From: an uncultured Acidobacteriota bacterium
Lineage (GTDB): Bacteria; Acidobacteriota; Thermoanaerobaculia; Multivoradales; JBCCEF01
DNA length: 64,000 nucleotides
Reading direction: 5' to 3'
Assembly (NCBI GenBank): GCA_963843275.1
Contig: CAWJJM010000011.1
Location: 133,756-197,755 of the forward strand
Of the stretch, positions 3,061 through 59,523 are shown piece by piece. Position 1 is the stretch's first letter, and each line of letters opens with the position of its first letter. A model generated the notes under the pieces. The model did no database searches and was not told where the DNA came from. It saw nothing but the letters and a program-made list of their open reading frames with translations. A program made the position numbers and the translations under genes.

Positions 3061-3076
3061 CGGGATCCGCCCTCGC

Positions 3077-4048: not shown

Positions 4049-4109
4049 CTCGTCGGTCGTCCTCGAGGGCCCCGGTGCGGCGCGGACCGACCGCGCCCTC
4101 CCGTGGCGG

Positions 4110-11053: not shown

Positions 11054-11084
11054 CGTTGCGCAACAAAATCCGTTGCGCTAAGAT
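11054..11084 (+). promoter_or_regulatory. Candidate promoter/operator of the RES-Xre module (TTGCGC-17 nt-TAAGAT; direct repeat CGTTGCGC x2; palindrome TTGCGCAA)
   Basis: -35-like TTGCGC 11056..11061, 17-nt spacer, -10 TAAGAT 11079..11084; the ATG follows 6 nt later with no SD (leaderless geometry). CGTTGCGC occurs at 11054..11061 and 11071..11078. Locally AT-rich. Confidence 0.5.
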
Positions 11085-11090
11085 GACGCC

Positions 11091-18481: not shown

Positions 18482-18567
18482 GGTCCCTCCGCTCCGCGCC
18501 CGCACCGCCGGCCGCGCGACCTCTCTCGAGGACGCCCCCCCGTCGCGCCGCCGCCGGTACCGAGCGC

Positions 18568-18583
18568 GCGTAATTGCGTAATT
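18568..18583. repeat. Tandem 8-mer GCGTAATT x2 inside an AT-rich loop flanked by a GCGCGCG/CGCGCGC inverted repeat (18564..18594)
   Basis: gcgcgcgTAATTGCGTAATTcaatcgcgcgc. It is the most AT-rich spot of the S9-cytochrome intergenic region, about 85 nt upstream of the cytochrome start. Confidence 0.6.
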
Positions 18584-18694
18584 CAATCGCGCGCCATCAG
18601 ACCAGAACCCGCCCCACCGGTCAACCCGCGCCGCCGTCCCGGGCTCCGCCGGCGCCGCGCCCCCCGACCGGAGAGAGGTACCCGCCACCTCGTT

Positions 18695-43148: not shown

Positions 43149-44444
43149 TCAGGCCGCCCGCCGCAGGCGTCGCAGCCGGCGGGTCAGCGGCAGCGCCAGC
43201 AACAGGCCGGCCCCGGCGGCCACCGCCAGCAGCGTCCCCTCCCCCACCGCCGGCAGCCCGGCCGCGGCGGCGGCCGCCCGCAGCACGTTGCCGGTGCCGA
43301 GCACCAGGGTCACCGCGACGACCGCCGCCATCGCCGCGTTCGACAACGGCCCGTTGAGCCCCGCCGCCCCCATCAGCCGGCGGTCGTTGACCGCCAGCAG
43401 CAGGAACGCCGCCACCCAGGGGAGCAGGACGCCGTTGGCGGCCTGGGCGAGGAGGATCACCGGGATCGGCTTGACCCCGGACAGCCCGAAGGCGACGCCG
43501 GTGGCGAGCACCGCCCCCCACACCGCCCGGTACCGCGGCGAGCGCGGCGCCCAGCGCTCGGGCCGGTCGGGATCGGCGAACAGGCCGCGGGCGGTGATCG
43601 CGGCGGCGAGCGGCGCCGTCACCGCCGACGACAGGCCGGCGGCGGCGAGGCCGGCGGCGAACAGGGGCGCCGCCCAGGCGCCCAACCGGGCGGCCAGGAC
43701 CGCCGCCACCGCCGGGAAGGAGAACGGTCCGTGGACGGCGCTGCCCACCACCAGCACCCCCATCGAGATCAACCCGCCGAGCAGCACCGACACGGTGAGG
43801 CCGAAGCGCACCTCGGAGAGCGCCTGCCCGCCGGCGACGCCGGAGCCGAGGAAGAGGTTGTAGGGCACCACGGTGGTGCCGATCAGACCCAGCACCAGGA
43901 AGGCCGAGCCGGCGGGCAGCGACGGCACCAGGGCGCCGGCGGCGAGCTCGCCCGCGGGCGGGGCGAGCAGGGCCGCGCTGAGCAGGAACGCCGCGCCCAT
44001 GACGGCGACGGTCGCCGCCAGGATCCGCGCCACGGTCGACGGGTTGCCGAGCCACAGCAGCAGCGCCGCCAGCGCTCCGGAGACGAGCGTCAGGACACGC
44101 GCCGGCAGCCCGACGGCCAGGGCCAGGCCGGCCACTCCGCCGAGGATGTTGCCGGCCTCGTAGGCGGCGCAGCCGAGCAGGATGGCGACCAGCACCAGGA
44201 GCACGCCGCCGGCGCCGCCGCCGTGGCGCCGCGACAGGGCGCTCGCCAGGTCGCGCCCCGAGACGGCGGTGAGCCGCGCCGCGGCCTCCTGCAGCACCAG
44301 CGTGGCGACGGTCGAGAAGACCAGCGCCCAGAGCAGGGACAGCCCGAAGCGCGAGCCCGCGGAGGCGGCGGTCGTCACCGTCCCGGGCCCCAGGAAGGCG
44401 GCCGCGATCACCGACCACAGCAGGACCGCGAGCAGCCGTTTCAC
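43149..44444 (-). CDS. NRAMP-fold (SLC11-like) transporter lacking the canonical metal-binding residues
   Basis: GTG at 44444 overlaps the hyuB stop (GTGA), in the frame of track ORF 43149..46274. ...AAAFLGPGTVTTAASAGSRFGLSLLW... aligns residue-for-residue with the NRAMP ...DPGN...G..FGY.LLW; ...GTTVVPYNLFLGS... aligns with ...MPHNLYLHS; ...AAAGLSSAVT... is conserved. Confidence 0.8.
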   Translation of the reverse strand: MKRLLAVLLWSVIAAAFLGPGTVTTAASAGSRFGLSLLWALVFSTVATLVLQEAAARLTAVSGRDLASALSRRHGGGAGGVLLVLVAILLGCAAYEAGNILGGVAGLALAVGLPARVLTLVSGALAALLLWLGNPSTVARILAATVAVMGAAFLLSAALLAPPAGELAAGALVPSLPAGSAFLVLGLIGTTVVPYNLFLGSGVAGGQALSEVRFGLTVSVLLGGLISMGVLVVGSAVHGPFSFPAVAAVLAARLGAWAAPLFAAGLAAAGLSSAVTAPLAAAITARGLFADPDRPERWAPRSPRYRAVWGAVLATGVAFGLSGVKPIPVILLAQAANGVLLPWVAAFLLLAVNDRRLMGAAGLNGPLSNAAMAAVVAVTLVLGTGNVLRAAAAAAGLPAVGEGTLLAVAAGAGLLLALPLTRRLRRLRRAA

Positions 44445-46042
44445 GGCGGGCCCCAGCCGCCGCCGCCCGGCGTCTCGAGGACCAGGCGGTCGCCCGGCGC
44501 GACCTCGCAGCCGTCCACCGCGCCCAGCTCGACCACGGCGCCGTCGGCCCGCACGAGGCGCTGGCGGCCGGGGGCGCCGGGCCCGCCGCCGGCGCCGCCG
44601 CGCGGCCCCGCGGCGCGGTGCTGGGTGAGCAGCGACAACGACATCGGCGCCAGGAACTCGATCTCCCGCACCACGCCGTCGCCGCCCCGCCAGCGGCCGG
44701 CGCCCCCCGAGCCGCGGCGCACCGCGAAGCGCCACAGCCGCACCGGGTAGCGCAGCTCGAGCACCTCGGGGTCGGTGGCGCGGGTGTTGGTCATGTGGCT
44801 GTGCACCGCCGAGGCGCCGGCGAAGCCCGGCCCGGCGCCGCAGCCGCCGGCCACCGTCTCGTAGTAGCCGAAGCGGTCGCTGCCGAAGAGCACGTTGTTC
44901 ATCGTCCCCTGGCTGCCGGCGGCGAGGCCGAGCGCCGCCAGCAGGACGTCGACCAGGCGCTGGCTGGTCTCCACGTTGCCGCCGACCACGGCCGGACAGC
45001 GCGCCGGGTCGTCGGGGAACGGCGGGTCGAGGAAGCTGCCCGGCGGCACCACCAGCTCGACGGGCCGCGCCAGCCCCTCGTTGAGCGGCAGCGGCTCGCC
45101 CACCAGGAGGCGCAGGACGTAGAGCACCGCGGACCGCACCACCGCCGGCGTGGCGTTGAGGTTGCCCGGGTGCACCGGGCCCGAGCCGGTGAAGTCGATG
45201 CGCGCCGCCGGGCCCCCGGCGTCGGGGCGTAGCTCCACGGCCACCCGCAGCGGCGTGCCGTCGTCGAGCCGGTCCTCGGCGGTCCGCGCTCCGGCCGGCA
45301 GGCGCTCCGCCAGGCGTCCCAGCGCGGCACGCAGCAGGCTCTCGGCCCGTACCTCCAGGCCGGCCATCGCCGCGGCCACGGTGTCGGCGCCCGCCGCTCC
45401 GGCCAGCGCCCGCAACGCCTCGGCGCCACGCCGGTTCGCCGCCACCGCCGCGGCCAGATCGGCGAGGTTCTCCTCCACCGCCCGCGAGGGCCACGGCGGC
45501 GCCTCGAGGCGGCCCCGCACCTGCTCCCACCGCGCCACGCCCGCCCGGAACAGGTGCACCGGCGGCAGGACCACGCCCTCGTCGGCCAGGCGCCGCGCGT
45601 CCGGCGGCATCGAGCCGGGACGGCTGCCGCCGATCTCCGCGTGGTGGGCGCGGCTGGCCGCATAGCCGAGCAGCTCCCCGGCCGCGGACCCCGCCCCGGC
45701 GCCAGCGGCGAACACCGGCGTGATCACCGTCACGTCGGGCAGGTGCGAGCCGCCATACCCGGGATGGTTGGTGACCACCACGTCGCCCGGCTCCAGCGGG
45801 ACCGTCGCCGCCACCCGGCGCACGCAGAGGCCGAGGGCGCCGAGGTGCACCGGGATGTGGGGGGCGTTGACCACCAGCCCGCCGGCCGGGTCGAGCAGGG
45901 CGCAGGAGAAGTCCAGCCGCTCCTTGACGTTGGTCGACAGCGCGGTGCGCCGCAGCATCTCGCCCATCTCCCGGGCGATGGCGGCGAAGCGGTTGGTGAA
46001 CAGCTCCAGCCGCACCGGGTCGGCGAGGGGTGGCGCCGTCAT
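44441..46042 (-). CDS. hyuB: Hydantoinase B / oxoprolinase family protein
   Basis: Trimmed to the ATG at 46042 (ATGA overlap with the upstream gene). ...[44 protein letters not shown]..., ...[18 protein letters not shown]-like segment ([23 protein letters not shown]). Confidence 0.9.
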
Positions 46043-46545
46043 CCCGGCTCGATCGGCTGCGGAGCGGCCACGGCCGCCGGGGCAGGCAGCTCGCGCGCCC
46101 GTGGCCAGCCCAGGGCCATCCCCACCCAGGCCGCGGCGCCGAACAGGACGGCCCACCGCGGGCTCCCGCTGGCCAGGGCGAGGACCAGCCCGACCACGGC
46201 GGCGGCCTCGCGCAGCGCGAAGCCGACCAGCTTCGCCGTCCGGTAACGGTCCAGCCGATCGGCCGCCGTCGCACCCCCGGGGGTCTGCCGCTGCCGCGCC
46301 AGGAGCCGGCGCTCGACGAGCGGCGCGGCGACCAGCAGCAGCGCGCCCGTGGCGGCGAGCATCCCGGGCAGGGGAGACGGCAGGACGGCCCGCGGAAACC
46401 CGCCGAACCGACCGGAGGTCAGGGCCCAGGCGACGGCGACGTACGCGGCCACCGCGGCGGCCAGCGCACCGGCCACGACCTGCACGGCGAGCAGGCGGGG
46501 GGCACCGGGGCCGACGGCCGGCGTCTGCGGGTTCCCTGTGGTCAT
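46039..46545 (-). CDS. Hypothetical 4-TM membrane protein, translationally coupled to hyuB
   Basis: Trimmed to the ATG at 46545 (SD GGAGGAAGG). Four hydrophobic helices. No family recognised. Confidence 0.6.
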
Positions 46546-46747
46546 CCCGACCCTTCCTCCCCCGCGGACCGCGGCCCTCGGCCGGCGCGGCACCGCGCCG
46601 CCGGTCCCTCCCATCCTCGTCCTCCCGCGTCCGCGTGGAGCGGCGCCATGATGGGACGGCGCCGGAGCGCTGTCAAGACGGCGCGGCGCCCCGCCCGGCA
46701 CCCACCGGGCTGGTAGGATCGCGCGCCACGGCGCTCCGGACCATCGC

Positions 46748-47314
46748 ATGCAGCAGCCGACCATCATCGGTGAGGATCCCGGCGAAGGCGACGCGCTCCC
46801 GGACGTTTCCGAGCGCTCCGCCGAGCTCGCCCGCCGCTACTCCCGCCTCATCCACTCCGCCGTCGCCACGGTCGCCGGAGGCGACGCCGCGCGGCTCGCC
46901 GACGACGTCGAGCAGCACGTGCTGATCCAGCTCTTCCGCCAGCTCGCCGGTGAGCAAGAGATCCGCCATCCGGCCTCTTATCTATACCGGGCGGCCGTGC
47001 GCGAGACCGTTCGGGTGCTGCGCCTCGAGGCGCGGTACGAGCGCGGGCGGGCGGCGGCCGGCGAGCTGCCGTCCACCGCCGGGCCCGATCCCGAGCGGGC
47101 GCTCGCCGCCCGCGAGCTGCGCGAGAAGGTGTCGACGGCGCTCGGCAGCCTGACCGCCGCGCGCCGGCGGGCGGCCCGGGCCCACCTGGCCGGGTTCGAC
47201 GTGAGGGAGATCATGGCGATGTATGGCTGGACCTACAACCGGGCCCGCAACCTGATCGCACGGGGCATGGCCGACCTGCGGCGGGCCCTGCGTTCCCGAG
47301 GCGTCGATGGCTGA
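46748..47314 (+). CDS. ECF-type RNA polymerase sigma-70 family factor
   Basis: Region 2-like ...[13 protein letters not shown]...[15 protein letters not shown]; region 4 HTH ...[45 protein letters not shown]. Confidence 0.85.
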
Positions 47315-47975
47315 GCCGCCGCTGCTGCCGGGGCCCGCCTGGCAGACCTCCGCCGGCGAGCACCCGTCCGCCGAGGCGTGGGAGCACCTCGCCTGCGGCG
47401 AGCTGGCGGCCGCCGAACGCCGCCGTCTGCTCGACCACGTGGCGGGCTGCACCGAGTGCACGCGCATCTACCGCGCCCTCGGCATCCTGGAGCGCGGCGC
47501 CCGCGCCTTCGACCCCGGCGTCCCGCGACGGGGGCTGGCGCTGCCGGCGCGGCCCGGGCCGGTGGCGTGGCGCTGGGGTGCGGCGGCCGCCCTCGCCGCC
47601 GCCGCGGCCGCGGTCGTCCTGTGGATCGGCGTCCGCCCGCCGGCGCCGGCCGTGCCCCCCGCCGCCGGCGTCGTCCGCTCCGGACCGGCGGCGGCGGTCC
47701 CGGTCCTGCGTTCGCCGCTCGGCACGGTCGCCGGGCCGGTCGCCTTCGCCTGGGAGGCGGTGCCCGGAGCGGTGCGCTACCGCCTCGAGCTGCTCGACGC
47801 CGACGGAGAGGTCCTCGGCGCGGTGGTGACCGGCGGCACCGGGGCGGCCTGGCCGGCCGCCGTCCCGGCCCGTCCCGGCCGCTACTACTGGCGGGTCGTC
47901 GCCGATCTCGAGCGCGGCGGCACCGCCGCCTCGCCGTTGGCCGACTTCGAGCTCACCGGTCCGCCGACCCGCTAG
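47307..47975 (+). CDS. Anti-sigma factor (zf-HC2 type), single TM helix, extracytoplasmic domain of about 110 aa
   Basis: 8-nt overlap with the sigma gene. H-X3-C...H-X3-C-X2-C (WEHLACGE...LDHVAGCTECTRIY). TM helix WGAAAALAAAAAAVVLWIG. C-terminal domain ...FAWEAVPGAVRYRLELLDADGEVL...GRYYWRVVA... Confidence 0.78.
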   Translation: MAEPPLLPGPAWQTSAGEHPSAEAWEHLACGELAAAERRRLLDHVAGCTECTRIYRALGILERGARAFDPGVPRRGLALPARPGPVAWRWGAAAALAAAAAAVVLWIGVRPPAPAVPPAAGVVRSGPAAAVPVLRSPLGTVAGPVAFAWEAVPGAVRYRLELLDADGEVLGAVVTGGTGAAWPAAVPARPGRYYWRVVADLERGGTAASPLADFELTGPPTR

Positions 47976-48154: not shown

Positions 48155-49273
48155 TCACGCGGCGGGACGCCGGGGTAGCGTGAACACCGGCACCACCCAG
48201 CCCGCCTCGAGGTCGATTCCCAGGACGACCACGTGGAGGAGCAGCGTCCACGAGATCCTCTCCGCCGGCGAGCGCCACACGGTCGGCCGGCAGCCGCTCG
48301 GGATGTCGAAGGCGACCGGCACGGCGGCACCGCGCGGCCCGAGGTAGAGGTCGGCCGGCGGCACCGAGCGTTCCGCGGACCAGAGCTCGGAGTGCCCGAT
48401 GCGGCGGCTCGCTCGGCCGCTGGAGCCGGGTGGTGGAGGGTCCAGGGCCCATCGCGTGCAGACCAGGCGGAGGCGGATGGCCTTCGGCGCGCTGCCCAGG
48501 CCGGTGAGGATGCGACCCTCGAGCCGGCCTCCGATCGCCCCGGGCAGCGTGCTCATCTCGAAGGTCGAGGCGCCGAAGCGCCAGCGGACGAGCCACAGGC
48601 GCAGTGCCAGGCCGGCGAGCAGGAGCGCGGGGACGAGCCACGCGGCGCTGGGCAGCAGCGCCCGGGCGAGCCCGGCGGGGTCGTCGCGCCAGCGCGCCAG
48701 GTCCGGGGGGGAGCTCCGCCAGACGACGAGGACCATCGGCAAGGCCAGGGCCGCAGCGCCGGCTGCCGCCAGGGCGAAGAGGGCCGAGGTCGCTCCCACC
48801 CGCCCGCGCAGCCGGCCGGTCGCCCACTCCTCGTTCCAGCGCCACGGCTCGTCCGGAGAGGCCTGTCGCAGCACCTCGGAGGCGTCGGGCTCCCGCAACC
48901 CGCCGTGCCGGAGCCCTGCGCCGTCGGGCATCGCCCGGAACAGCGCGGTGAGGGCCACCAGCCCGCCGAGCAGCGAGGCGGCGCCCAGCGACCCCATCGG
49001 CTCCCAGCCCGGCTCCCCGAAGGCCCATCGCACCACCGCGACCGACAGCGCGGCGAGCCCCAGCACCTGCGCCAGTCCCGAGATCGCCAACCCCGCGCAG
49101 GCGAGCCCGCCGCGGCCGACGACGGCGAGCGCGCCGCGCAACTCCGCGTCCGAGGGCAGCCCGGGGTTCGTGGCGGGCTCCGTCGCGGTCTCCGAAACGG
49201 GGCTGAAGTCCTCCAGAGGGACGAGCGCGGCGGCCTCCCGGCGGCCCTCGTCGTCGCCGGCGAGCCGGCTCAC
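48155..49273 (-). CDS. Hypothetical membrane protein: 4 TM helices plus a C-terminal soluble domain of about 150 aa
   Basis: GTG start with GGGGGAGGGG upstream. Protein-like composition, unlike the overlapping + frames. The C-terminal pattern (...FEMSTLPGAIGGRLEGRI...IRLRLVC...VPVAFDIPSGCRPT...ISWTLLLH...GIDLEAGWVVPVF) looks like an all-beta sandwich. Last gene of the minus-strand unit 51797->48155. Confidence 0.6.
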   Translation of the reverse strand: MSRLAGDDEGRREAAALVPLEDFSPVSETATEPATNPGLPSDAELRGALAVVGRGGLACAGLAISGLAQVLGLAALSVAVVRWAFGEPGWEPMGSLGAASLLGGLVALTALFRAMPDGAGLRHGGLREPDASEVLRQASPDEPWRWNEEWATGRLRGRVGATSALFALAAAGAAALALPMVLVVWRSSPPDLARWRDDPAGLARALLPSAAWLVPALLLAGLALRLWLVRWRFGASTFEMSTLPGAIGGRLEGRILTGLGSAPKAIRLRLVCTRWALDPPPPGSSGRASRRIGHSELWSAERSVPPADLYLGPRGAAVPVAFDIPSGCRPTVWRSPAERISWTLLLHVVVLGIDLEAGWVVPVFTLPRRPAA

Positions 49274-49334
49274 CCCCTCCCCCTGGCGGCCGGTCGGCCT
49301 CCGGCGAGGACGAGGCGGCAGGCGAGGGGGCCGC

Positions 49335-50999
49335 TCACCGGTGAGCGGACCGGGCCGGAGGCACCCCGCCTTCGCCGCGCCGCCGCAGGGCCCAGGCCGC
49401 AGCGGCCGCCAGGACGAGGGCGAGCGCGACCAGGCCCGACCGCCCGAGCGCCGGGATCTCGAGGACCGACGCTGCCGTCACCACGACGCAGGCGGAGAAC
49501 TCGGAGCTGTCGCCGGTGGGGTCGGAGACGCTGGCCACGGCGGTGACGAACCAGCCGGGGGGCACGGCCGGAAGGGAAACGTCGATCGGCCCGCTGCCGG
49601 AGCCGTCGGTGGAGACCTGCGCGAAGCCCAGGTACTGCTCGCCCTCGCCGAAGCCGGACGGATCGCAGGCGGAGCTGGCGTAGAAGGAGACCAGGAAGGG
49701 ACGGCCGGGATCCGACTCGAGGAGGCCGGTGACGGCCGTGACGCCGCCGCTCGCGACGGCGCTCGCCAGCTCCGGGTAGTTCTGGAGGTGGTTGTGGCCA
49801 CCGTCGCCGTCGCCCGGGTCGTTCGCCGTCACGCCGTCGTCGCCGAGGTCGATCCCCAGCCCGTCGTTGGCGAAGATGCGGTTGCCGCGGAAGGTGTTCT
49901 GGAGGTTGTCGACGGCGCCGGCGACGGCGATGCCGGCGCCGTGGTTGAAGGCGATGACGTTGGCCTGCTCGGGCTGCAGGCCGCCGACGACGTTGCCGTC
50001 GCAGCTGCCGCCGCTGGTGCCGATGTGGACGCCGTCGGAGCCGTTCGGGATCGGCACGGTCCCCGTCGCATCGGTGCCGATGAAGTTGCCCTGGATGACG
50101 GCCGAATCGGCGCCGAGGCCGATGAGGATCCCGCGCGAGGCGTTGCCGGAGATGACGTTCCCCTCGCCCGCCGCGCTCCCCCCGACGAGGTTGTACGCCG
50201 AGGCGAGACCGTCGATGCTGAGACCGACGAAGTTCGGCAGCGCCGTGAGCCCGTCGGCGCCGACGCCGATGAAGTTGCCGAGGACCCGGTCGTCGCTCGT
50301 GTTGCTGGCGAGCGACACGCCGTGCTGCGGGCTGCCGGCGAGGAGGTTGCGATCGGCCGGGTCGGCGCCGCCGATCCGGTGGCCCGACCCGCCGAGCACC
50401 GCGACGTTCGAGCCCCCGTTGCCGAACGCCGTGGTCCCGGCGGGATCGGTGCCGAGGAAGTTGCCGGCGATCACGCAGTCGTCGGCACCGTCGAGGACGA
50501 TGCCGGCGCCGCCGGGGCTCGAGCCGCCGAAGACGAAGCGGTTGATCACCAGCCCGCGCAGGGTGCTGCCGCTGCCGCCGGCATCGACCGACAGGCCGAC
50601 GCTCCCGGACCCCGCCGCCGAACCGTCGATCTCGATCAGCAGCACCGCGTCGTCGCTCGCCGACCGGGTGTTGGCGCTCGCCCCCGGCTGGCTGGTGCCG
50701 TCGATCGTCATCGGCACGCTGACCGCCGGCAGCGGGCTGGCGGGCTGCAGGGTGTGGACGCCGGCGCCGGGGATGGCGAACTCGATCCGGTCGTCCGTGC
50801 CGTAGGCCCCGACGGCCACGACGTCCGGGTCGACCGCGCTGCCGAGGTCGAGCGACAGCAGCGCCTCGCGCAGGGTGACGACGCCGTCGGTCGCGACGCC
50901 GTCGCCGCCGCTGGTCACGGTGACCGTCGCCGCCCGGGCGCCGATGCCCCCGAGAAGCGCCGGAAGAACGAGCAGACCTGCGAGCACCGCCCGCCTCAT
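49335..50999 (-). CDS. Secreted right-handed parallel beta-helix repeat protein (CSLREA-like N-terminus) with IPTL-CTERM-like sorting signal
   Basis: Trimmed to the ATG at 50999 (SD GAGGAGG; signal peptide MRRAVLAGLLVLPALLGGIGARA). ...GVVTLREALL..., repeated GNF(I/L)G(T/V)(D/G)..G units, ...NHLQNYPEL.... C-terminus ...VLEIPALGRSGLVALALVLAAAAAWALRRR... Confidence 0.82.
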   Translation of the reverse strand: MRRAVLAGLLVLPALLGGIGARAATVTVTSGGDGVATDGVVTLREALLSLDLGSAVDPDVVAVGAYGTDDRIEFAIPGAGVHTLQPASPLPAVSVPMTIDGTSQPGASANTRSASDDAVLLIEIDGSAAGSGSVGLSVDAGGSGSTLRGLVINRFVFGGSSPGGAGIVLDGADDCVIAGNFLGTDPAGTTAFGNGGSNVAVLGGSGHRIGGADPADRNLLAGSPQHGVSLASNTSDDRVLGNFIGVGADGLTALPNFVGLSIDGLASAYNLVGGSAAGEGNVISGNASRGILIGLGADSAVIQGNFIGTDATGTVPIPNGSDGVHIGTSGGSCDGNVVGGLQPEQANVIAFNHGAGIAVAGAVDNLQNTFRGNRIFANDGLGIDLGDDGVTANDPGDGDGGHNHLQNYPELASAVASGGVTAVTGLLESDPGRPFLVSFYASSACDPSGFGEGEQYLGFAQVSTDGSGSGPIDVSLPAVPPGWFVTAVASVSDPTGDSSEFSACVVVTAASVLEIPALGRSGLVALALVLAAAAAWALRRRGEGGVPPARSAHR

Positions 51000-51098
51000 G
51001 TCGCGCACCTCCTCACACACCGGTTCGAGACAGAGAGAGGGCTGCGGAGCGCGACTTGCTCACCTCCCGTCGCCGGTCCCGGGGCGGAGGAGTCCTCG

Positions 51099-51797
51099 TC
51101 ATCGGGGTGCCGGCGCCCGCGATCCGACGAACCGCCGGCGACGCCCGCGCAGGCGGAGCAATCCGTGCCCGGCGAGCAGGCTCACCAGAGCGAGCAGGCC
51201 CCAGGGGCCGACGGCGGGGACCGCCGCCGCCAGGGCGGGGGAGCCGGGCTCGACCCCCAGGCGGTACGGTGGAGGAAAGCTGGCGCCGAACCCGGGGTCG
51301 ACCGGCACCCCGACCAGCAGGTCCGCCGTCACCGGGAACAGGATGCAGCTCTGGGTCGAAACCTGCCAGGCGTAGGACACCGTCAGCAAGCTCGGCGGCA
51401 CGGTCGGGTCGATGCGGTAGAGCGTCTCTCCGCCGCCATCGGTGAGGAAGAAGGGCGTCGAGGAGAACTTGAGCTCGGGAGGCCCGCTCTGGGTCAGCAG
51501 CGAGGGGAAGACGTGGGGGGGACCGACGCAGTCGCTCTCTGCGTAGAAGGACTCGAAGGTCAGGTTCTCGTTGCGCACCGCAGCGATGCCGGTCTCGCCG
51601 TCGACGCTCAGGGTGGTGAGCGCCAGCGACGCGCTCATGATGGTGCTGGTCGGCGAGTCCTCCCGTTCGAAGTCGACGACCCGCCCGAGCGTCTCTCCGT
51701 TCGACGCCCGGACGACCGCGCTGCCCGCCGGGAGAACCTGTGCCGTGGCGCCCCCGCCCCACAGGGCGAGCACCGCCAGGATTGCGACCCTCTTCAT
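51099..51797 (-). CDS. Small secreted hypothetical protein with IPTL-CTERM-like sorting signal
   Basis: Trimmed to the ATG at 51797 (SD AAGGAGG; signal peptide MKRVAILAVLALWGGGATA). C-terminus ...AAAVPAVGPWGLLALVSLLAGHGLLRLRGRRRR... Confidence 0.72.
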   Translation of the reverse strand: MKRVAILAVLALWGGGATAQVLPAGSAVVRASNGETLGRVVDFEREDSPTSTIMSASLALTTLSVDGETGIAAVRNENLTFESFYAESDCVGPPHVFPSLLTQSGPPELKFSSTPFFLTDGGGETLYRIDPTVPPSLLTVSYAWQVSTQSCILFPVTADLLVGVPVDPGFGASFPPPYRLGVEPGSPALAAAVPAVGPWGLLALVSLLAGHGLLRLRGRRRRFVGSRAPAPR

Positions 51798-51938
51798 TGC
51801 AGCCTCCTTTCTCACCCGCGATCCCGGGACGGCGGCACCGACCGCCGGCAGGACGGCCAGCCATCCGGGCTCCGGCTGGCTCGTGAGCCCTCGCGGGCAC
51901 CCGCTCCTCGGCAGGTCCCGTCTCCGAGAGAGGGGGGT

Positions 51939-51964
51939 GGAGCCCGACCTGCTCACCTCACGTC
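51939..51964 (+). promoter_or_regulatory. Candidate ECF-type promoter (GGAGCC-16 nt-CGTC) upstream of the CHAT gene
   Basis: tGGAGCC cgacctgctcacctca CGTC, ending 14 nt before the ATG at 51979. Resembles the generic ECF GGAAC-N16/17-CGTC architecture. There is no SD and no TAnnnT element here. Confidence 0.25.
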
Positions 51965-51978
51965 GCCGCCCCACCGGG

Positions 51979-54900
51979 ATGAGATACTGGGAGCCACCCT
52001 TGAAGGCCTCGCTCCAGACGGTCGTCCGCGCCGCCCTGGCGGCTCTGCCGGGGCTCGGCCTGGCCCTGGCGCTGAGCGCCTGCGGCGGCGGTTCCGAGGG
52101 ACTGCTCGTCACCGCTTGCGAACCCTGGGGAGCGGCGAGCCGGTCGGGGGTCGAGATCGGCGATCGGTTGGTCGGTTGGCGGAGCGGCGGCCAGGTCGGC
52201 CGGCTGCGCACGCCACTCGATCTCTTCGTCGTCGAGATCGAGCAGGGCCTGGACGGCCCGGTCACGCTCGAGGTCGACCGCCGTGGTCACCGCCGCCTGC
52301 TCCGCCTCGACGGCGGAGCCTGGGATCTCGAGACCCGAACGGGCGGTGGCGACGCCGACCCTCCCGGGGAGGGCTCGGATCACACCCTCCGGCGGCTCCG
52401 CGCGCAGGCCGCCGCCGCCGCGGCGGCGGCCGACCCCCGGCTCGCCGCCTGGTGGCACGTGGCCGAGGGCGACCTGCTGACCGGGGCTGGGCGCTTCGCC
52501 GAGGCGGGGCGCGCCTACGCCCAGGCCCGGCACGAGAGCGCCGGACCGGCGGCGAGGGCGGCCGTCGACGACTGGCAGGCCCGGCGGCTGATCGCCGCCG
52601 GCAGGCTCGACGACGCGGCGGCGGCGGAGCGCCGCGCCCTCCACCTGCGCGCGGGGCGGGACCCCGGCGGCGCCGCGGTCGCGGTCTCCCTCTACCAGCT
52701 CGGCCGCATCGCCGCGCGCCGCCAGCGCTGGGACGACGAGGCGAAGCTGACCCGTGCCGAAGCGATCCTCCTTGCGATGCCGCGCGGCCGCGAGCTGCTG
52801 GCCGAGGTCCTCAACCTGCGCGGCATGATGGCCTGGGGCCGGCGTGACCTCGACGCGGCCGCCGGCCACTACCGGGCGGCCGCGTCGCTCCTCGCCGGCC
52901 TCGGCCGCGAGAACCCGCTGCGCGCCAATCTCCTGGGCAACCTCGGGCTCGTCGCCGAGCTGCGCGGCGACATGGGCGAGGCGGCCGGGTTGTTCGCCGC
53001 CGCGGCGGCCCTGCACGCCCGGGTCGACCCGGAGAGCGTCGACGCCGCCTACGCGTACAACTACCTCGGCATCCTGGCCAAGCAGAAGGGCGACCTGGCC
53101 GCCGCCGAGCACTGGTACCGGCGCGCCGAGGCGGTCTTCGAGGTGGCGCTTCCCGACGGCGTGGAGACCGCCGGGATGCTCAACAACCTGGGCAACCTGG
53201 CCCTGCGACGCGGCGAGCTGGCCGCCGCGGAGCGCCTCCACCGTCGGGCGCTGGCGGTTCGCCAGCGAATCGTGCCGGGAACGGCCGACCACGCGGCGAG
53301 CCTGCAGAACCTCGGTCAGGTGCTGGAGCTCGAGGGCGAGACCGAACGCGCCGAGCCCTACCTGGTCGAGGCCCGGGCGATCAAGGCCCGGGTGGTCCCG
53401 GACAGCCTCGACTACTCCAACGCCCTCACCGCCCTCGGCCGTCTGCGCCAGGACCAGGGGCGGCTCGACGAGGCCGAGTCCCTCCACCGCGAGGCGCTGG
53501 ACCTGCGCCGCGCGGTGGCGGAGGGGCGCTGGGAATGGGCGGAGAACCTCTTCTTCCTCGGGGAGATCGCCCTCGCCCGCGGAGACCGGGGCGACGCCGA
53601 GAAGCTCTGGCGTCAGGCGGTCGACGGGATCGAGCAGAACCGCGAGCGCCCCGAGTGGGACCCGGAGGAGCGCTCCGGCTTCGCCGCCCCCTTCCAGCGC
53701 TACTACCGGCGGCTGGCGGCGCTGCTGGCGGCCGGCGGCCGTGCGCGCGAGGCCTTCGAGCTGCTGGAGAGCGCCCGCGCCAGGGCGCTGCGCAGCCTGC
53801 TCGCGGCACGCCGGCTACGCCACCCCGCCGGTCTGACGGCGCCGCGGGCGGCACGGCGCGACGCCCTCCGGGAGGCGCAGGGCAGGCGGCTCGACGAGAT
53901 CGCGGCCGCGCTCGGCGAGGGCGCGGTGCTGCTCGCCTACTCGGTGGCCGAGGACGGCACCCTGCTCTTCGTCGTCGCCGGTGGGACGGCCCGTGCGCCG
54001 CAGGTCCACCGCATCCCGGCCGGGGAGGAAGAGCTGCGCTCGCGGGTGGCGATCTTCCGCGCCCTGGTCGAACGCGGGCGCCGGGGCGGCGCGGTGGTCG
54101 AGCCGGCGCTCCTCGCCCAGGGCCGCTGGCTCTACGAGCGCCTCGTCGCTCCCGCCGAGAACGCCCTCGCCGGCGCCGAGCGCATCGTGATCGTCCCCGA
54201 CGGGCCGCTCTTCTCGCTGCCCTTCGCCGCCCTGGTGCGCCGCCGCCGGCCGACGGTGGCCTGGCTGGGGGGCTGGCGGCCGCTCAGCATCGTCCCCGCG
54301 GCCGGTGTCCTGGTCGAGCTCGGCCCGGCCGGCCGCAGGGCCCGCCCGCCGCGCCGGCTCGTCGCCTTCGCCGACCCGGTCTACCCGCCGGGCGGGCTGG
54401 CGCCCCTGCCGGGGACGCGCTCGGAGGTCTCCCGCCTCGCGCCCCTCTTCCCGGGCAGCCTCGTCTACCTGGGGCGCGACGCCACCGAGGACCGCCTGGG
54501 GGCCTTGCCGTCGTCCCCGCTCATCCTCCACCTCGCCGTCCACGGACTGCTCGACGAGCGCTTCCCGCTGGAGTCGGCGCTGGCGTTCTCGACCCCCGCG
54601 GCGGCGGCGCCGGCGCGTGAGGACGGTCTGCTCCACGCCTGGGAGGTGCCCGAGCGGCTCGATCTCGACGCCGACCTCGTGGTGCTCTCCGCGTGCGATT
54701 CGGGCCGTGGACGCGAGCTGCCGGGGGAGGGGATCCTGGGGCTCGCCCGCGCCTTCCAGATCGCCGGCGCCCGCGCCGTGCTGGCCTCCCAGTGGGCGGT
54801 CGCCGACCGCTCGACCGGCGAGCTGATGGTCCGCTTCTACCGCCACCTCGCGGCCGGCCGGTCCGCCGCCGCCGCCCTCGCCGCCGCACAGCGCGAGCTG

Positions 54901-54990
54901 GCCGACGGCGACGCCGACGGCGCCGGCCTCGCCGCGGCCCGGCACCCCTTCGCCTGGGCCGGCTTCCAGCTCGTCGGCGACGGCAACTGA
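51979..54990 (+). CDS. Lipoprotein with PDZ-like domain, TPR repeats and C-terminal CHAT (caspase-like, clan CD) peptidase domain
   Basis: Track ORF 51571..54990 trimmed to the ATG at 51979. Lipobox ...GLALALSAC. PDZ-like ...GVEIGDRLVGWRS...VTLEVDRRG. At least 7 TPR-like units (e.g. NYLGILAKQKGDLAAAEHWYRRAEAVF, NNLGNLALRRGELAAAERLHRRALAV). CHAT His ...ILHLAVHG... and Cys ...LVVLSACDSGRG... Confidence 0.85.
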   Translation: MRYWEPPLKASLQTVVRAALAALPGLGLALALSACGGGSEGLLVTACEPWGAASRSGVEIGDRLVGWRSGGQVGRLRTPLDLFVVEIEQGLDGPVTLEVDRRGHRRLLRLDGGAWDLETRTGGGDADPPGEGSDHTLRRLRAQAAAAAAAADPRLAAWWHVAEGDLLTGAGRFAEAGRAYAQARHESAGPAARAAVDDWQARRLIAAGRLDDAAAAERRALHLRAGRDPGGAAVAVSLYQLGRIAARRQRWDDEAKLTRAEAILLAMPRGRELLAEVLNLRGMMAWGRRDLDAAAGHYRAAASLLAGLGRENPLRANLLGNLGLVAELRGDMGEAAGLFAAAAALHARVDPESVDAAYAYNYLGILAKQKGDLAAAEHWYRRAEAVFEVALPDGVETAGMLNNLGNLALRRGELAAAERLHRRALAVRQRIVPGTADHAASLQNLGQVLELEGETERAEPYLVEARAIKARVVPDSLDYSNALTALGRLRQDQGRLDEAESLHREALDLRRAVAEGRWEWAENLFFLGEIALARGDRGDAEKLWRQAVDGIEQNRERPEWDPEERSGFAAPFQRYYRRLAALLAAGGRAREAFELLESARARALRSLLAARRLRHPAGLTAPRAARRDALREAQGRRLDEIAAALGEGAVLLAYSVAEDGTLLFVVAGGTARAPQVHRIPAGEEELRSRVAIFRALVERGRRGGAVVEPALLAQGRWLYERLVAPAENALAGAERIVIVPDGPLFSLPFAALVRRRRPTVAWLGGWRPLSIVPAAGVLVELGPAGRRARPPRRLVAFADPVYPPGGLAPLPGTRSEVSRLAPLFPGSLVYLGRDATEDRLGALPSSPLILHLAVHGLLDERFPLESALAFSTPAAAAPAREDGLLHAWEVPERLDLDADLVVLSACDSGRGRELPGEGILGLARAFQIAGARAVLASQWAVADRSTGELMVRFYRHLAAGRSAAAALAAAQRELADGDADGAGLAAARHPFAWAGFQLVGDGN

Positions 54991-55136
54991 GCCGGCGGCG
55001 CGGCCGCACCCGGCTCGGCCGGCGGCGGCCGGTGAGCAAACCGCGCCGCCCCCGCCTCTACCGGGGATGGACCCACCGCTTCGCGGGCCGGCCGCCGCCG
55101 GTCGCGCGAGCCGTGGCGAACCGACGAGGAGCGCCC

Positions 55137-57176
55137 ATGGACCGCCGCCGACAGATCCCGGAGCGACGAGGCCGCGGGGAGCGCCGCCGCCGCCCGCGGC
55201 GGGTCGGCTGCGCCGTCGCCGCCCTGGCGCTCGCCGGGGCCGGCCTCCCGCGCAGCGCCGCCGCCGACACCGTCTACGCCGATCCCGCGGGCGCCTGCGC
55301 CACGCTCACCCCCTGTTTCACCACCCTGCAGGCGGCGATCGACGACGTCCACGCGCCCGGCACGGTGGGGCTCTTCCCGGGCACCTACGCCGAGAGCGTC
55401 GACCTCGACACCATGGGCTCGTCCGTGGGTGGCGGGCCCGGCGACCTGACCCTGCAGGCGCTCGACGCCGGCGGTTCGCCGGCCACCGGCGGGGTGACGA
55501 TCGATCCCGGCGCGTCGGGCGGACCGGGGACCGGACGAGCGATCCACGGCGGGCTGCTGGTCGCCTTTCCCGGCGACCTCGTGGTGCACGGGATCGGACT
55601 GACGTCTCCCGACAGCGGCGGCGTGGTGGTGGTCACCGACGGCGGCGTGGAGCTCGCCGACGTCGTGATCCAGAGCTGCGCCGACAACGGTGGAACGCTC
55701 CTCGCCCAGGGTCCGGTCTCCCTGACGCGGCTGGTCGCCTTCCTCAACGCCGGCTCAGGCCTGGGCGCCCTCGGCTCCGCGGTCACGGTGGACGACGCCA
55801 CGGCCGACCGCAACCAGGGGACCGGCCTGGTGGTCGCGAGCGACGGAGCGGTGGTCGCCCACGGCATCCATGCCGCCGGCAACGGCGGGAGCGGCCTCTC
55901 CACCCTCTCCTGCACCTCCGTCGAGGTCGAGGACGTGGTCACCGACGACAACGATCTCAACGGCACCGAGGTCGTCGTCGATGCGGGGAGCGGTTGCACC
56001 CCGGGCGGGCTCGCCGCCAGCGCCGCGGCCTCACAGGTCGGCCGCACCCCGGGCTTCGCCGGCGCGCTCGGCGCCGTCGGAACCGCGCCCCGCAGGGTCT
56101 CGGCGCCTGCCAGCGTCGTGGTGGTGGCGTCGATCCACCACCTCTCGGCGACCGGCAACGGCGGGGTGGGAGCCGGGGCCCAGGCGGTCTCCGGCGGCGA
56201 CCCGCTGGGCGGCATCGAAGCCGACGACGTCACGGCGGCCGGCAACGCCAGCCGGGGGCTCGTCCTGGTGGGCGACGACGTCCGGCTCTCGAACGCCACC
56301 CTGACCGGGAACCTGACCGGCACCCTGGTCGCCGGCGTCACGGTGACGGTCTCCCAGGTCGTGGCGAGCGACAACGCCCCGGGGACCTACACGCCCCCGG
56401 ACGAAGGGTCCGGCCTGGCGGTCGCCACCTCCGGCGCCGCCGAGCTCAACGACGTGGTGGCCGAGCGCAACGCCTTCGCGGGCCTGGTGCTGAGGACCTT
56501 CGACGGGCCCTCACCGGCGGGCCCCTACCGGATCGCCGGTGGCCGCTTCGCCGCCAACGCGGTCGGGATCGGCTCGTTCGGAGACGGCGAGGTCGTCGTC
56601 GCGATCGACGGCAGCGAGGTCGCCGACAACGGTGCGGCCGGGATCGCGCTGCCCAAGCTGCGGAGCGGGATCGTGCACGCCACCCTCGCCACCGGCAACG
56701 TGGCCGGGATCACCGCCGGCGTCGAGGGCCTCCTCGACGTCCGTGCCTCGGAGGTGTCCGGCAACCAGGAGGGTCTCGTCCTGGCGGTGCAGCCCGACGC
56801 CGTCGCCCGGATCCTGTGCTCGAACGTGCGCGACAACGTCCCCGGTGCCGGTCTCGAGCTGTTCGATGGGAGCGCGGTCGACGCCCGCGCCGACTTCTGG
56901 GGCGACCCCTCCGGGCCGACCCATCCGGACAATCCCGGAGGCGTCGGCGACGAGGTGGTGGACGGCGCCAACGGCGGCGTCGGCAGCGTCGACTTCTCCG
57001 CCTTCCTTGGGGCGGCGGCCACGGCGGACGACTGCCCCGCGATCTCCGCCGTCGAGATCCCCACCGCGGGCGCCTCCGGGCTGCTGGCGCTGGCGGGGCT
57101 GCTGGCGCTCGCCGGGCTCTCCGTCCTCGCCGGGCACCGCCGCCGGACGGGGGCCGAGGGGCGCGGCGCGCCCTAG
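55137..57176 (+). CDS. Secreted right-handed beta-helix repeat protein with IPTL-CTERM-like sorting signal
   Basis: Track ORF 54693..57176 trimmed to the ATG at 55137 (SD GAGGAG; Arg-rich n-region plus VGCAVAALALAGAGLPRSAAA). ...CFTTLQAAIDDVHAPGTVGLFPGTYAESVDL..., many ...N.G.GL.V... coils. C-terminus ...SAVEIPTAGASGLLALAGLLALAGLSVLAGHRRR... Confidence 0.8.
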   Translation: MDRRRQIPERRGRGERRRRPRRVGCAVAALALAGAGLPRSAAADTVYADPAGACATLTPCFTTLQAAIDDVHAPGTVGLFPGTYAESVDLDTMGSSVGGGPGDLTLQALDAGGSPATGGVTIDPGASGGPGTGRAIHGGLLVAFPGDLVVHGIGLTSPDSGGVVVVTDGGVELADVVIQSCADNGGTLLAQGPVSLTRLVAFLNAGSGLGALGSAVTVDDATADRNQGTGLVVASDGAVVAHGIHAAGNGGSGLSTLSCTSVEVEDVVTDDNDLNGTEVVVDAGSGCTPGGLAASAAASQVGRTPGFAGALGAVGTAPRRVSAPASVVVVASIHHLSATGNGGVGAGAQAVSGGDPLGGIEADDVTAAGNASRGLVLVGDDVRLSNATLTGNLTGTLVAGVTVTVSQVVASDNAPGTYTPPDEGSGLAVATSGAAELNDVVAERNAFAGLVLRTFDGPSPAGPYRIAGGRFAANAVGIGSFGDGEVVVAIDGSEVADNGAAGIALPKLRSGIVHATLATGNVAGITAGVEGLLDVRASEVSGNQEGLVLAVQPDAVARILCSNVRDNVPGAGLELFDGSAVDARADFWGDPSGPTHPDNPGGVGDEVVDGANGGVGSVDFSAFLGAAATADDCPAISAVEIPTAGASGLLALAGLLALAGLSVLAGHRRRTGAEGRGAP

Positions 57177-57255: not shown

Positions 57256-59523
57256 TCAGCCGCCCGCGGGAGGGTCCCGCCGTTCCAGGAGCAGGGCGCC
57301 GGCCGCGTCCACCCGGACGTCCCAGCCGGGCGGCACCACCACGGCGCCGTGGGCCTCGAAGACGAGCGCCGGACCGCCGCAGCGGGCGCCCGGCGCAAGG
57401 CGCGAGCGGTCGTGGACCGGCACCCGCCGCCAGCCGCCGCCGAACCAGGCGCGGCGGTGGGCGGCCGGCGGCGGCGCCGTGCTCTCCTCGACCGGCTCCG
57501 GGGCCGGCTCGGGTGCCGCGCGCGACGAGGCCACCACCCGCAACGACTCGACCTCGATCCCCCGGTCGGCCGGCACGTAGCCGTAGCGCTCCCGGTGGGC
57601 GCGGGTGAAGAGCTCGCCGAGCCCGGCGCCGGCGACCGGCTCGACCTCCAGCGTCGACTCCTGCCCGGAGAAGCGCAGGTGCACGAGGCGCCGCCGCACC
57701 GCGACCTCCTCCCGCGCGATCCCCTCGGCGGCCACCGCCGTGGCGGCCTCCTCCCCGAGGTCCGCGAGCCAGGCGGCGAGCCGGTCCTCCACCGCCGCCA
57801 GCGGCGCCAGCACCTGGCGCTGCGCGAAGCGCTCGACCACCGCCGCCCCCAGCCCCCGCGCCGAGAGCAGCCCGGCGTCGCGGGGCACGAGCACGGCGGG
57901 GACGCCGAGCAGCGCGGCCACGGCGCAGGCGTGCTGTCCCCCGGCGCCGCCGAAGGCGACCAGCGTGTGCTCCGCCGGGTCGTAGCCGCGGCGTACCGAC
58001 AGCGTGCGGATGGCGTCCGCCATGCGCTCGTCGGCGATCGCCGCGAAACCCTCGAGCAGGGCCTCGCGGCCGGGGGGCGGGTCGCCGCGGCGGGAGGCGG
58101 CCGCGGCGACCCGCCGCGCCACGGCCTCGAACGCCGCCGCCGCCGCCGCCGGCTCGACCGGGATCCCGAAGCGCTCGGGATCGAGCCTGCCGAGCAGCAG
58201 GTTGACGTCGGTGAGCGCCAGCGGTCCGCCCGCGCCGTAGCAGGCCGGCCCGGGGCGGGCACCGGCGCTCTCGGGTCCGACGGTGAGGGCGGCGCCGTCG
58301 AAGCCGCACACCGAGCCGCCGCCCGCCGCCACCGTCTCGATGGCCAGGGCGGGAGCCACCAGGTGGGCGTCCCCCACCCGGTGCTCGAAGAGGTACTCGA
58401 AGTCGCCGTCCCAGCGCGCCACGTCGGTCGAGGTGCCGCCCATGTCGAACGACAGCAGCCGCCGGTGACCGGAGCGGACGGCGGCCCGCGCCGCCCCCGC
58501 CACGCCGCCGGCCGGGCCGGAGAGCAGGGCGTCGGTGGCGCGCAGGTCGGGCCGCCGCACCAGGCCGCCGGCGCTGGTCATCACGTGCAGGGTGCCGCGC
58601 GCCTCGGGGAGGGCGGAGCCCACGGCGTCGAGGTAGCTGTCGAGGACCGGCGCCAGGTAGGCCTCGACCACCGCCGTCTCGGCGCGCGGCACGTAGCGCG
58701 CCAGCGGCGCCAGCTCGGCCGAGGCGACCACGCGGGTCAGCCCGCCGCGGCGCAGCGCCGCCGCCACCGCCCGCTCGGGCGCCGGGTTGCGGTAGCTGTG
58801 CAGCAGCGCCACCGCCACCGCCTCGATCCCCTCGTCGCGCAGCTCCCGGGCCACCGCGCCGAGGCCGTCGAGCGCCGGCGCCCGCAGGGTCGAGCCGTCG
58901 GCGGCGAGTCGTTCGTCCACCTCGACGACGCGGCGGTGCAGCGGGCGCGGCTTGACCACCTCGAGGGCGAACAGGTCCGGCCGCTGCTGGTCGCGGATCT
59001 CGAGCAGGTCGGCGAACCCGCGGGTGACGACCAGGGCGGTGGCGGCACCGCGGCGCTCGAGCAGGGCATTGGTGCCGCGGGTGGTGGCCAGCCGCAGCGC
59101 CATGGGCGGCAACGGCTCGCCGGCGGCGGTGCGGGTGACCAGCCGCGCCGCCAGCACCGGCGCCTCCTCGGCGAAGCGCAGCTCGACCCGGTCGCCGCGG
59201 CGCAGCGCCGCCGGCGGCGCGCCCTGCAGCGTGAAGGCGCCGCGGCCGGCGTCGTAGCCGGCGACGCCGCTCCCCGCGTCCGCCGGCGCGCCCAGCCGGT
59301 GCAGCGCCGCGCCGGCGAAGAACCCGGGGGGCACCGTCCAGCGCGGCTCCACCTCGACGCGGTCTCCCGCCGCCACCCGCACCACCCCGCGCAGGGCGCT
59401 CGACGACAGCACCTTGGCGCGGTGCACGACGCCGTCCGGGGCCACCGCCAGACAGTCGGTGAAGGTGCCCCCGGTGTCGATCCACACCCGCCAGCGCGGG
59501 CCGCTGGTACCGTCGCCGCTCAC
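57256..59523 (-). CDS. hyuA: Hydantoinase A / oxoprolinase family protein
   Basis: GTG start with GGGAGGGAG SD. ...RVWIDTGGTFTDC..., ...ATTRGTNALLERRG..., ...SFDMGGTSTDV..., ...AFGGAGGQHAC... Confidence 0.9.
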   Translation of the reverse strand: MSGDGTSGPRWRVWIDTGGTFTDCLAVAPDGVVHRAKVLSSSALRGVVRVAAGDRVEVEPRWTVPPGFFAGAALHRLGAPADAGSGVAGYDAGRGAFTLQGAPPAALRRGDRVELRFAEEAPVLAARLVTRTAAGEPLPPMALRLATTRGTNALLERRGAATALVVTRGFADLLEIRDQQRPDLFALEVVKPRPLHRRVVEVDERLAADGSTLRAPALDGLGAVARELRDEGIEAVAVALLHSYRNPAPERAVAAALRRGGLTRVVASAELAPLARYVPRAETAVVEAYLAPVLDSYLDAVGSALPEARGTLHVMTSAGGLVRRPDLRATDALLSGPAGGVAGAARAAVRSGHRRLLSFDMGGTSTDVARWDGDFEYLFEHRVGDAHLVAPALAIETVAAGGGSVCGFDGAALTVGPESAGARPGPACYGAGGPLALTDVNLLLGRLDPERFGIPVEPAAAAAAFEAVARRVAAAASRRGDPPPGREALLEGFAAIADERMADAIRTLSVRRGYDPAEHTLVAFGGAGGQHACAVAALLGVPAVLVPRDAGLLSARGLGAAVVERFAQRQVLAPLAAVEDRLAAWLADLGEEAATAVAAEGIAREEVAVRRRLVHLRFSGQESTLEVEPVAGAGLGELFTRAHRERYGYVPADRGIEVESLRVVASSRAAPEPAPEPVEESTAPPPAAHRRAWFGGGWRRVPVHDRSRLAPGARCGGPALVFEAHGAVVVPPGWDVRVDAAGALLLERRDPPAGG

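Follow-up and report, generated by a model that had tools for sequence, protein, structure and literature searches.

Three divergent IPTL-CTERM-type proteins clustered with an ECF sigma factor and a TPR-CHAT lipoprotein in a GC-rich uncultured Acidobacteriota bacterium

Three genes lying close together in a 64-kb stretch of DNA from an uncultured Acidobacteriota bacterium (hereafter the window) encode proteins, designated C1, C2 and C3, that end in similar C-terminal tails consisting of a short motif, a hydrophobic helix and a cluster of arginines. Judged from their sequences, these tails are divergent members of the IPTL-CTERM class of sorting signals. The reading that we consider likely is that the three proteins are Sec-exported carriers of this signal, that they would be processed by an XrtH-type exosortase encoded elsewhere in the genome, and that they form the regulon of an adjacent module built around a sigma factor of the extracytoplasmic function (ECF) type. 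The carriers and their tails, each tail being given from the motif to the Arg cluster, are located as follows.

49335-50999, minus strand: C1, a predicted exported beta-helix (CSLREA-like) protein of 554 amino acids with an IPTL-type tail
49377-49460, minus strand: sorting tail of C1, EIPALGRSGLVALALVLAAAAAWALRRR
51099-51797, minus strand: C2, a predicted exported protein of 232 amino acids, fold unknown, with an IPTL-type tail
51132-51224, minus strand: sorting tail of C2, AVPAVGPWGLLALVSLLAGHGLLRLRGRRRR
55137-57176, plus strand: C3, a predicted exported right-handed beta-helix protein of 679 amino acids with an IPTL-type tail
57054-57146, plus strand: sorting tail of C3, EIPTAGASGLLALAGLLALAGLSVLAGHRRR

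Genes were called by frame analysis of the GC content at third codon positions (GC3); at the GC content of this window (75-78%), mechanical lists of open reading frames (ORFs) are full of spurious frames. An independent public gene call, made on a 9.1 kb Logan contig of identical sequence, gives the same genes as the GC3 calls for all three carriers, and the genome sequence examined comprised the 64-kb window and this 9.1 kb copy. Public proteins identical to C1 (P0001, 554 amino acids) and to C2 (P0121) were also found, the latter being the best match of the three-tail profile described below (P numbers denote proteins retrieved in our searches and L numbers denote loci, with L001-L020 being the loci of relatives). 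The translations reproduce exactly the three C-termini reported in the first-pass annotation of this DNA, whose tail intervals extend to the stop codons, 9-13 residues beyond each Arg cluster. A common layout is seen in all three tails, where [IV]-P-x-x-G-x-x-G-L is followed by 18-23 hydrophobic residues and then by RRR or RRRR, the tail lying 38-42 residues from the stop. No further ORF with such a tail was found in any frame of the window.

The passengers of the three tails are unrelated to one another. C3 matches Pfam Beta_helix (PF13229) with 46.3 bits and the homologs of C1 are named parallel beta-helix or CSLREA proteins, which bears out the earlier description of two carriers as beta-helix-like, and the passenger of C2 is an unknown domain of 170 amino acids. 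N-terminal signal peptides had been claimed for all three proteins and were recognised on reading the sequences; they are plain in C1 (MRRAVLAGLLVLPALLGGIGARA) and C2 (MKRVAILAVLALWGGGATA), and in C3 a long Arg-rich n-region precedes the hydrophobic core. This unusually long start (MDRRRQIPERRGRGERRRRPRR; 55137-55270, plus strand) stands ahead of the signal core in both C3 and its ortholog in L005, and it could represent a Tat-like or otherwise atypical signal.

The tails are not a composition artefact of Ala/Leu/Arg-rich translation at high GC, as is seen from a pattern count, from a hidden Markov model (HMM) of ortholog tails and from conservation among orthologs. The pattern [IV]P[ATVG].G..GL, which was derived from the same tails and is thus post hoc, occurs three times in the six-frame translation of the window (115,677 residues), where 0.25 occurrences are expected, and all three occurrences lie at the above distance from a stop and are followed by a hydrophobic stretch and RRR. 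An HMM built from the ortholog tails of other genomes ranked C1 (25.2 bits) and C2 (15.6 bits) at the top of the 531 six-frame ORFs of the window, with the next match at E=4. The C3 tail was not recovered among these ORFs by the HMM of C1-ortholog tails; it is tied to the class through the NCBIfam model NF033207, the joint three-tail profile and its own orthologs.

Orthologs with 52-65% identity were observed to keep the tail, as in P0002-P0005 ('EIPALGPLGLLAL'), in the C3 ortholog of L005 ('EIPAAGGAGLALL...RRR') and in L017 ('EIPTVGGAGLALL' and 'EIPVLSGLGLAVL'). The pattern E-[IV]-P-x-x-[GS]-x-x-G-[LI] is kept in the C1 orthologs P0002-P0010 and in the C3 orthologs of L005 and L017, and the linker preceding it varies. 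In some C1 orthologs (P0006 and P0008-P0010, which end in ...LLSSTKLFS) the Arg cluster is lost and the helix is kept.

The best NCBIfam match of all three tails is NF033207, named 'midcut-by-XrtH protein' (E from 1e-4 to 8e-3), with scores of 21.8 bits for C1, 22.5 for C2 and 16.2 for C3. The tails align to the sorting-signal region of this model, at profile positions ~31-67. The two models of the IPTL-CTERM class itself have curated cut-offs of 20.5 bits (TIGR04174, IPTL_CTERM) and 20.8 bits (Pfam PF18203, IPTL-CTERM). TIGR04174 gives the isolated tail of C1 20.9 bits, full-length C1 14.6 bits and the isolated tail of C2 14.3 bits, and it does not match C3 either as a tail or at full length. 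PF18203 gives C2 19.7 bits and does not match C1 or C3 at E<=0.01. All the scores on these two models are close to the cut-offs or below them. Among the other sorting-signal models, GlyGly_CTERM was matched only by the C3 tail, at E=3.7, and LPXTG_anchor reaches 15.6 bits on the same tail (cut-off 15.9). The first-pass annotation had set its own proposal against the case of tails that match an existing PEP-CTERM-type model, with an exosortase encoded elsewhere in the genome; as regards the first half of that case, the tails do match an exosortase-type model, and no PEP-CTERM model is matched by them at E<=10.

Class membership was assessed further by searching in the reverse direction. When 1.84 billion representative proteins were searched with a 40-position profile made from nothing but the three window tails, 86 matched at E<=1e-3, 85 of them non-self. 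Nearly all of these 85 carry a C-terminal tail of the form 'EIPTLGEWGLxALAxLLAxAG...RRRR'; 66 match TIGR04174 (E<=0.01), 70 match NF033207, and nine of the ten retrieved proteins that were scanned individually exceed the TIGR04174 cut-off. All the variants seen in the window, namely IPAL, VPAV, IPTA and a replaced Trp, are present among the retrieved proteins, and a phmmer query with C2 reaches canonical IPTL loci through its tail. Since the profile thus retrieves canonical members with the window variants among them, the three tails are placed by sequence within the IPTL-CTERM class as divergent members, and the earlier assignment of an IPTL-CTERM-like tripartite signal stands.

Like canonical IPTL-CTERM/XrtH systems, the window has a signal at the extreme C-terminus with [IV]-P-x-x-x-x-x-G-L set against a hydrophobic helix and followed by an Arg cluster, carries it on unrelated exported passengers that include 'choice-of-anchor' beta-helix proteins, and has no xrtH gene adjoining the carriers, as in most canonical loci. 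It differs in that various residues stand in for the Thr, Leu and Trp of IPTLxxWG (IPALGRSGL in C1, VPAVGPWGL in C2 and IPTAGASGL in C3, with [IV]-P and G-L invariant and in register with the helix), in that its full-length proteins score under the curated cut-offs, and in its source, an Acidobacteriota (Thermoanaerobaculia-like) genome of ~76% GC. The nearest GTDB-representative genome is an uncultured Thermoanaerobaculia (Acidobacteriota) metagenome-assembled genome (MAG), with 67% identity for the TPR-CHAT protein described below. Divergent tails of very GC-rich Acidobacteriota escape the curated IPTL-CTERM models, and the surface proteomes of such MAGs are under-annotated as a result.

IPTL-type signals were also seen in the middle of proteins or repeated within very large ones, with three matched stretches and lengths of 1104-1463 amino acids (P0130, P0139, P0142, P0133, P0144, P0165 and P0206; loci L021, L022, L027, L029 and L040).

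The PEP-CTERM/exosortase A (XrtA) system resembles the window in its three-part layout, where the motif directly abuts the helix, in the enzyme superfamily expected, and in having many substrates for one enzyme that is usually encoded elsewhere. The window tails, however, have neither a PEP motif nor a match to a PEP-CTERM model, and the window contains no exopolysaccharide locus and no PEP-CTERM-box regulator.

The first-pass annotation described IPTL-CTERM as having no assigned processing enzyme, which is incorrect. NCBIfam contains TIGR04177 ('exosortase H') and NF041730 ('exosortase H-associated membrane protein') in addition to the midcut model, and in four independent metagenome loci a canonical IPTL gene is directly followed by an xrtH gene. 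These loci come from a scan of metagenome contigs for [IV]PTL[GS]EWGL, through which 80 loci were fetched; 82 of the 90 matches to the pattern are within 45 residues of the stop. Polytopic ORFs adjoining the canonical tails were then scanned, and in L086 the ORF at 10193-10864, starting ~110 bp past the IPTL tail, matches TIGR04177 (exosort_XrtH) with 86.6 bits against a cut-off of 86. The following ORF is a weak match to NF041730. This XrtH carries 'RGCDAVEP' and not 'CSG'; its homologs match Pfam Exosortase_EpsH and are named 'exosortase H' by NCBI and 'exosortase H (IPTLxxWG-CTERM-specific)' by JGI. Of the canonical loci, 60 extend at least 1.2 kb past the tail, and in four of them (L086, L029, L083 and L076) an HMM of 112 XrtH proteins placed xrtH directly 3' of the tail. 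Since so few canonical loci have the enzyme gene next to the tail, a carrier without an adjoining xrtH is the norm. A 'midcut' gene was observed directly upstream of xrtH in L029.

The IPTL-CTERM enzyme is therefore assigned, by comparative genomics only; in the full-text literature search the one mention of IPTL-CTERM/XrtH was an incidental use for a Methylomirabilis S-layer protein. As a compact set, the three proteins of the window could serve as test substrates for the XrtH assignment.

Within the window itself the earlier statement that no cognate sorting enzyme is in sight was confirmed. No match to the exosortase/archaeosortase family (TIGR04178, PF09721), to a sortase or to a rhombosortase came out of NCBIfam or Pfam scans of the GC3-supported ORFs, and a six-frame run of the XrtH HMM over the window and the relatives' loci L001-L020 yielded nothing with E<10. 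The polytopic ORFs of the window are a TgpA-like transglutaminase, a CPBP protease, a glycosyltransferase, a Zn permease, an ORF with three transmembrane segments (3-TM) and a protein with four (4-TM). The 3-TM ORF (46042-46767) was set aside as a candidate enzyme, having no NCBIfam or Pfam family match.

No intramembrane protease is encoded in the window apart from the CPBP (Rce1-like) glutamic protease at 9968-10885 (plus strand), which brings in the explanation that another known class of enzyme cleaves the tails, be it a CPBP/myxosortase-type protease, a rhombosortase or a sortase. The protease matches Pfam Rce1-like and reaches sub-threshold scores on MrtS, MrtJ and Mrt_core (40-45 bits, cut-offs 75-130), and the near-cut-off LPXTG_anchor score of the C3 tail points in the same direction. 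However, 38 kb separate its gene from the carriers, and generic CPBP genes occur commonly. The known myxosortase signals (MYXO-, JDVT-, Synerg- and CGP-CTERM) all have an invariant Cys in the motif (bioRxiv 10.1101/2023.06.07.544157), whereas no Cys is present in or near the motif of any window tail. As the tails also have no GlyGly motif, going by the GlyGly_CTERM result above, and the window has no sortase or rhombosortase, we regard this explanation as the least credible of those considered.

The absence of a processing enzyme from the window, together with the C1 orthologs that have the helix without the Arg cluster, would also suit tails that are permanent C-terminal anchors in the inner membrane, with the proteins facing the periplasm, the helix never removed and the motif serving for packing or positioning. 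The distribution of the motif makes this unlikely. No other stretch of the C-terminal region is conserved as well as E-[IV]-P-x-x-[GS]-x-x-G-L, at the outer end of the helix, both across unrelated passengers and in the 52-65%-identical orthologs, and this motif matches a class that recurs next to xrtH. It would also make little sense for large, beta-helix adhesin-like passengers to be confined to the periplasm.

Processing by an XrtH-type exosortase, which we favour, would proceed as follows. C1, C2 and C3, two beta-helix proteins and a small one of unknown fold, would be exported through Sec as surface proteins, after which the tail would hold each of them in the inner membrane with the Arg cluster inside. 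A small polytopic exosortase with a Cys/Arg/His active centre, encoded elsewhere in the genome, would recognise [IV]-P-x-x-G-x-x-G-L at the membrane face and remove the helix, for which some unknown anchor would probably be substituted; in this way the proteins would arrive at the cell surface. Several observations weigh against this reading. All three full-length carriers score under the curated IPTL-CTERM cut-offs, with C3 having no match to the class models at all, and the Trp of IPTLxxWG is absent from C1, C3 and most orthologs. When the GC3-supported ORFs of the 64-kb window were scanned with NCBIfam or Pfam, none matched an exosortase of whatever subfamily, and XrtH in this genome is a prediction. 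The link between XrtH and IPTL is a bioinformatic assignment, for which the full-text literature search returned no experimental paper. Finally, the XrtH homologs retrieved are mostly Planctomycetota-like, with none evidently from an acidobacterium of 75% GC, in a search whose word pre-filter restricted retrieval to close relatives of a Planctomycetota-like seed.

The first-pass annotation took the clustering of three carriers in 8 kb as a hint that dedicated machinery is encoded among the neighbouring genes. The clustering is better explained by co-regulation, as an identical promoter-like motif precedes C1, C2, C3 and the 4-TM gene only. The neighbouring genes and the four copies of the motif are as follows.

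46748-47314, plus strand: ECF sigma factor, matching TIGR02937 (sigma70-ECF) with 42.2 bits (cut-off 42.9) and many other ECF models
47307-47975, plus strand: zinc-finger (zf-HC2) anti-sigma factor, single-pass, 222 amino acids, with a sub-threshold match to PF13490 (19.2 bits)
48155-49273, minus strand: 4-TM membrane protein of 372 amino acids with a C-terminal arrestin-N-like beta-sandwich, downstream of C1, orphan
52000-54990, plus strand: TPR-CHAT lipoprotein of 996 amino acids, between C2 and C3, matching Pfam CHAT (216 bits) and TPR_12
49312-49339, minus strand: motif upstream of the 4-TM gene, exact match, overlapping the C1 stop codon
51037-51064, minus strand: motif upstream of C1, exact match
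51930-51957, minus strand: motif upstream of C2, exact match
55031-55058, plus strand: motif GGTGAGCA-N16-CCTC upstream of C3, exact match

The upstream regions of C1, C2 and C3 share CGGCGAC-N3-5-GGTGAGCA-N16-CCTCTCTC. The core, GGTGAGCR-N16-CCTC, has exactly four perfect copies on both strands of the 64 kb, each of them just upstream of, and oriented with, its own gene, and none elsewhere in the window. When up to one mismatch is allowed, nine matches are found against 2.1 expected, a number that was reached in 0 of 100 shuffles. The two conserved blocks, 16 bp apart, look like the -35 and -10 elements of an ECF-type promoter, and the motif is probably the target of the adjacent ECF sigma factor. 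It also precedes the C3 ortholog in L005 (4645-4671, plus strand), which belongs to a Thermoanaerobaculia MAG. The tie to this particular sigma factor is our inference, since neither L017 and L002 nor the regions upstream of the ECF sigma and CHAT genes of the window contain the motif. The three carrier genes would thus lie together as one regulon of the adjacent ECF sigma, anti-sigma and periplasmic TPR-CHAT unit, and not because sorting machinery is encoded there. Such a regulon would be small and testable, with one regulatory unit, four promoters sharing one motif and three sorted surface proteins.

The neighbouring genes provide no sign of the dedicated machinery that had been expected among them: they encode an ECF sigma/anti-sigma pair, a TPR-CHAT lipoprotein and an orphan 4-TM arrestin-like protein. 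An enzyme class has been assigned to the tag in silico before, and none of the neighbouring genes resembles one for a new sorting enzyme. The TPR-CHAT protein has a signal peptide with the lipobox LSAC as well as caspase-like His/Cys motifs (HG... and SACDSG), and it is predicted to be a periplasmic lipoprotein with an intact His/Cys dyad. Homologs of the anti-sigma factor are encoded near TPR-CHAT homologs in four of the twelve CHAT loci, L005, L010, L011 and L016, the last three being from Gemmatimonadota; in L005 the anti-sigma ortholog is a fragment with 63% identity.

The only characterised relative is DdvA of Myxococcus xanthus, an anti-sigma factor with a periplasmic TPR-CHAT region that may be a site-1 protease (PMC11506125). 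As in DdvS/DdvA, an ECF sigma factor, a zinc-finger anti-sigma factor with one transmembrane segment and a periplasmic TPR-CHAT with a His/Cys dyad are encoded together (PMC11506125). In the window, however, the TPR-CHAT is a separate lipoprotein of 996 amino acids and the anti-sigma factor of 222 amino acids has no TPR-CHAT, so the latter is not a DdvA-type member, and the apparent regulon consists of three surface proteins and a membrane protein, whereas that of DdvS/DdvA is a CBASS/CRISPR defence island. Because the anti-sigma/CHAT pairing recurs and because of the likeness to DdvA, we read the sigma factor, anti-sigma factor and TPR-CHAT lipoprotein as one signalling unit, which looks like a split DdvA architecture and in which the lipoprotein may work as DdvA does. 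On the same grounds the TPR-CHAT protein was judged regulatory and set aside as a sorting enzyme.

The 4-TM protein has no NCBIfam or Pfam match and only two homologs among 5.8 billion proteins. Its AlphaFold2 model has a confidence score (pLDDT) of 67, rising to 80-90 in the beta-sandwich domain, for which Foldseek returned the N-lobes of arrestin, VDUP-1 and Spo0M. In L002 the gene upstream of its ortholog has no tail. With so few homologs this protein cannot be the dedicated enzyme of a widespread tag, and it was rejected as a sorting enzyme on account of its orphan family, its arrestin-like domain and the tail-less neighbour of its ortholog. The loop EEPWRWNEEWA was observed to be conserved in this protein.

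A new sorting enzyme encoded locally might be sought in the periplasmic TPR-CHAT lipoprotein, which would belong with GPI transamidase and PorU to the clan CD Cys proteases and act as a membrane-tethered transpeptidase, or in the co-regulated 4-TM protein. The CHAT gene does lie between carriers, with its lipoprotein signal and His/Cys motifs, and still adjoins the tail-bearing C3 ortholog in L005, and the 4-TM gene has the promoter motif of the carriers. L005 is, however, the only CHAT locus with a tail-bearing gene, CHAT homologs occurring in ten other loci without a tail-bearing neighbour, and the anti-sigma homologs in four of the twelve loci fit signalling in the manner of DdvA (PMC11506125). 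The C1 and C3 orthologs of L017 keep their tails beside a histidine kinase, with no CHAT gene on the 9.3 kb contig. As for the 4-TM protein, two homologs stand against a widespread class of tails, its soluble domain is arrestin-like and not protease-like, and the upstream neighbour of its ortholog is tail-less. A local enzyme is on balance very improbable. We give a similarly slight chance to a lineage without XrtH in which Trp-less 'EIPxxGxxGL' tails would be processed by the module itself, foremost by the TPR-CHAT protein as a transpeptidase; if true, this would make the module a sigma-controlled cassette that joins surface display and processing. If the genome should have no XrtH-like exosortase, some other enzyme would have to process the Trp-less tails, and one would look first to the periplasmic CHAT protease.

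Apart from the carriers and their presumed regulators, the window has a housekeeping chromosomal content, with recA, nadE, purEK, ilvA, folE, moaB, fabH, a Zn ABC transporter and helicases. Genes for hydantoinase/oxoprolinase subunits of the B-like type (44441-46156, minus strand) and of the A-like type (57256-59523, minus strand), matching the caprolactamase beta and alpha models, share a strand and flank the ~11 kb sigma/CHAT/carrier module. Such subunit genes are usually adjacent, and since they are split here, the module may have been inserted between them. In L005 and L017 the surroundings of the module contain no homolog of hyuA or hyuB.

Three further groups of genes were observed at a distance from the module. 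A TgpA-like transmembrane transglutaminase, a DUF58 protein and a MoxR-like AAA ATPase are encoded in a row at 5-4315 (minus strand). A type II toxin-antitoxin pair, consisting of an Xre-family antitoxin and a RES-domain toxin, is found at 11082-11971 (plus strand). The last is a protein of 1069 amino acids (15479-18688, minus strand) without an NCBIfam match, in which cytochrome P460-like motifs and several c-type haem (CXXCH) motifs are present.

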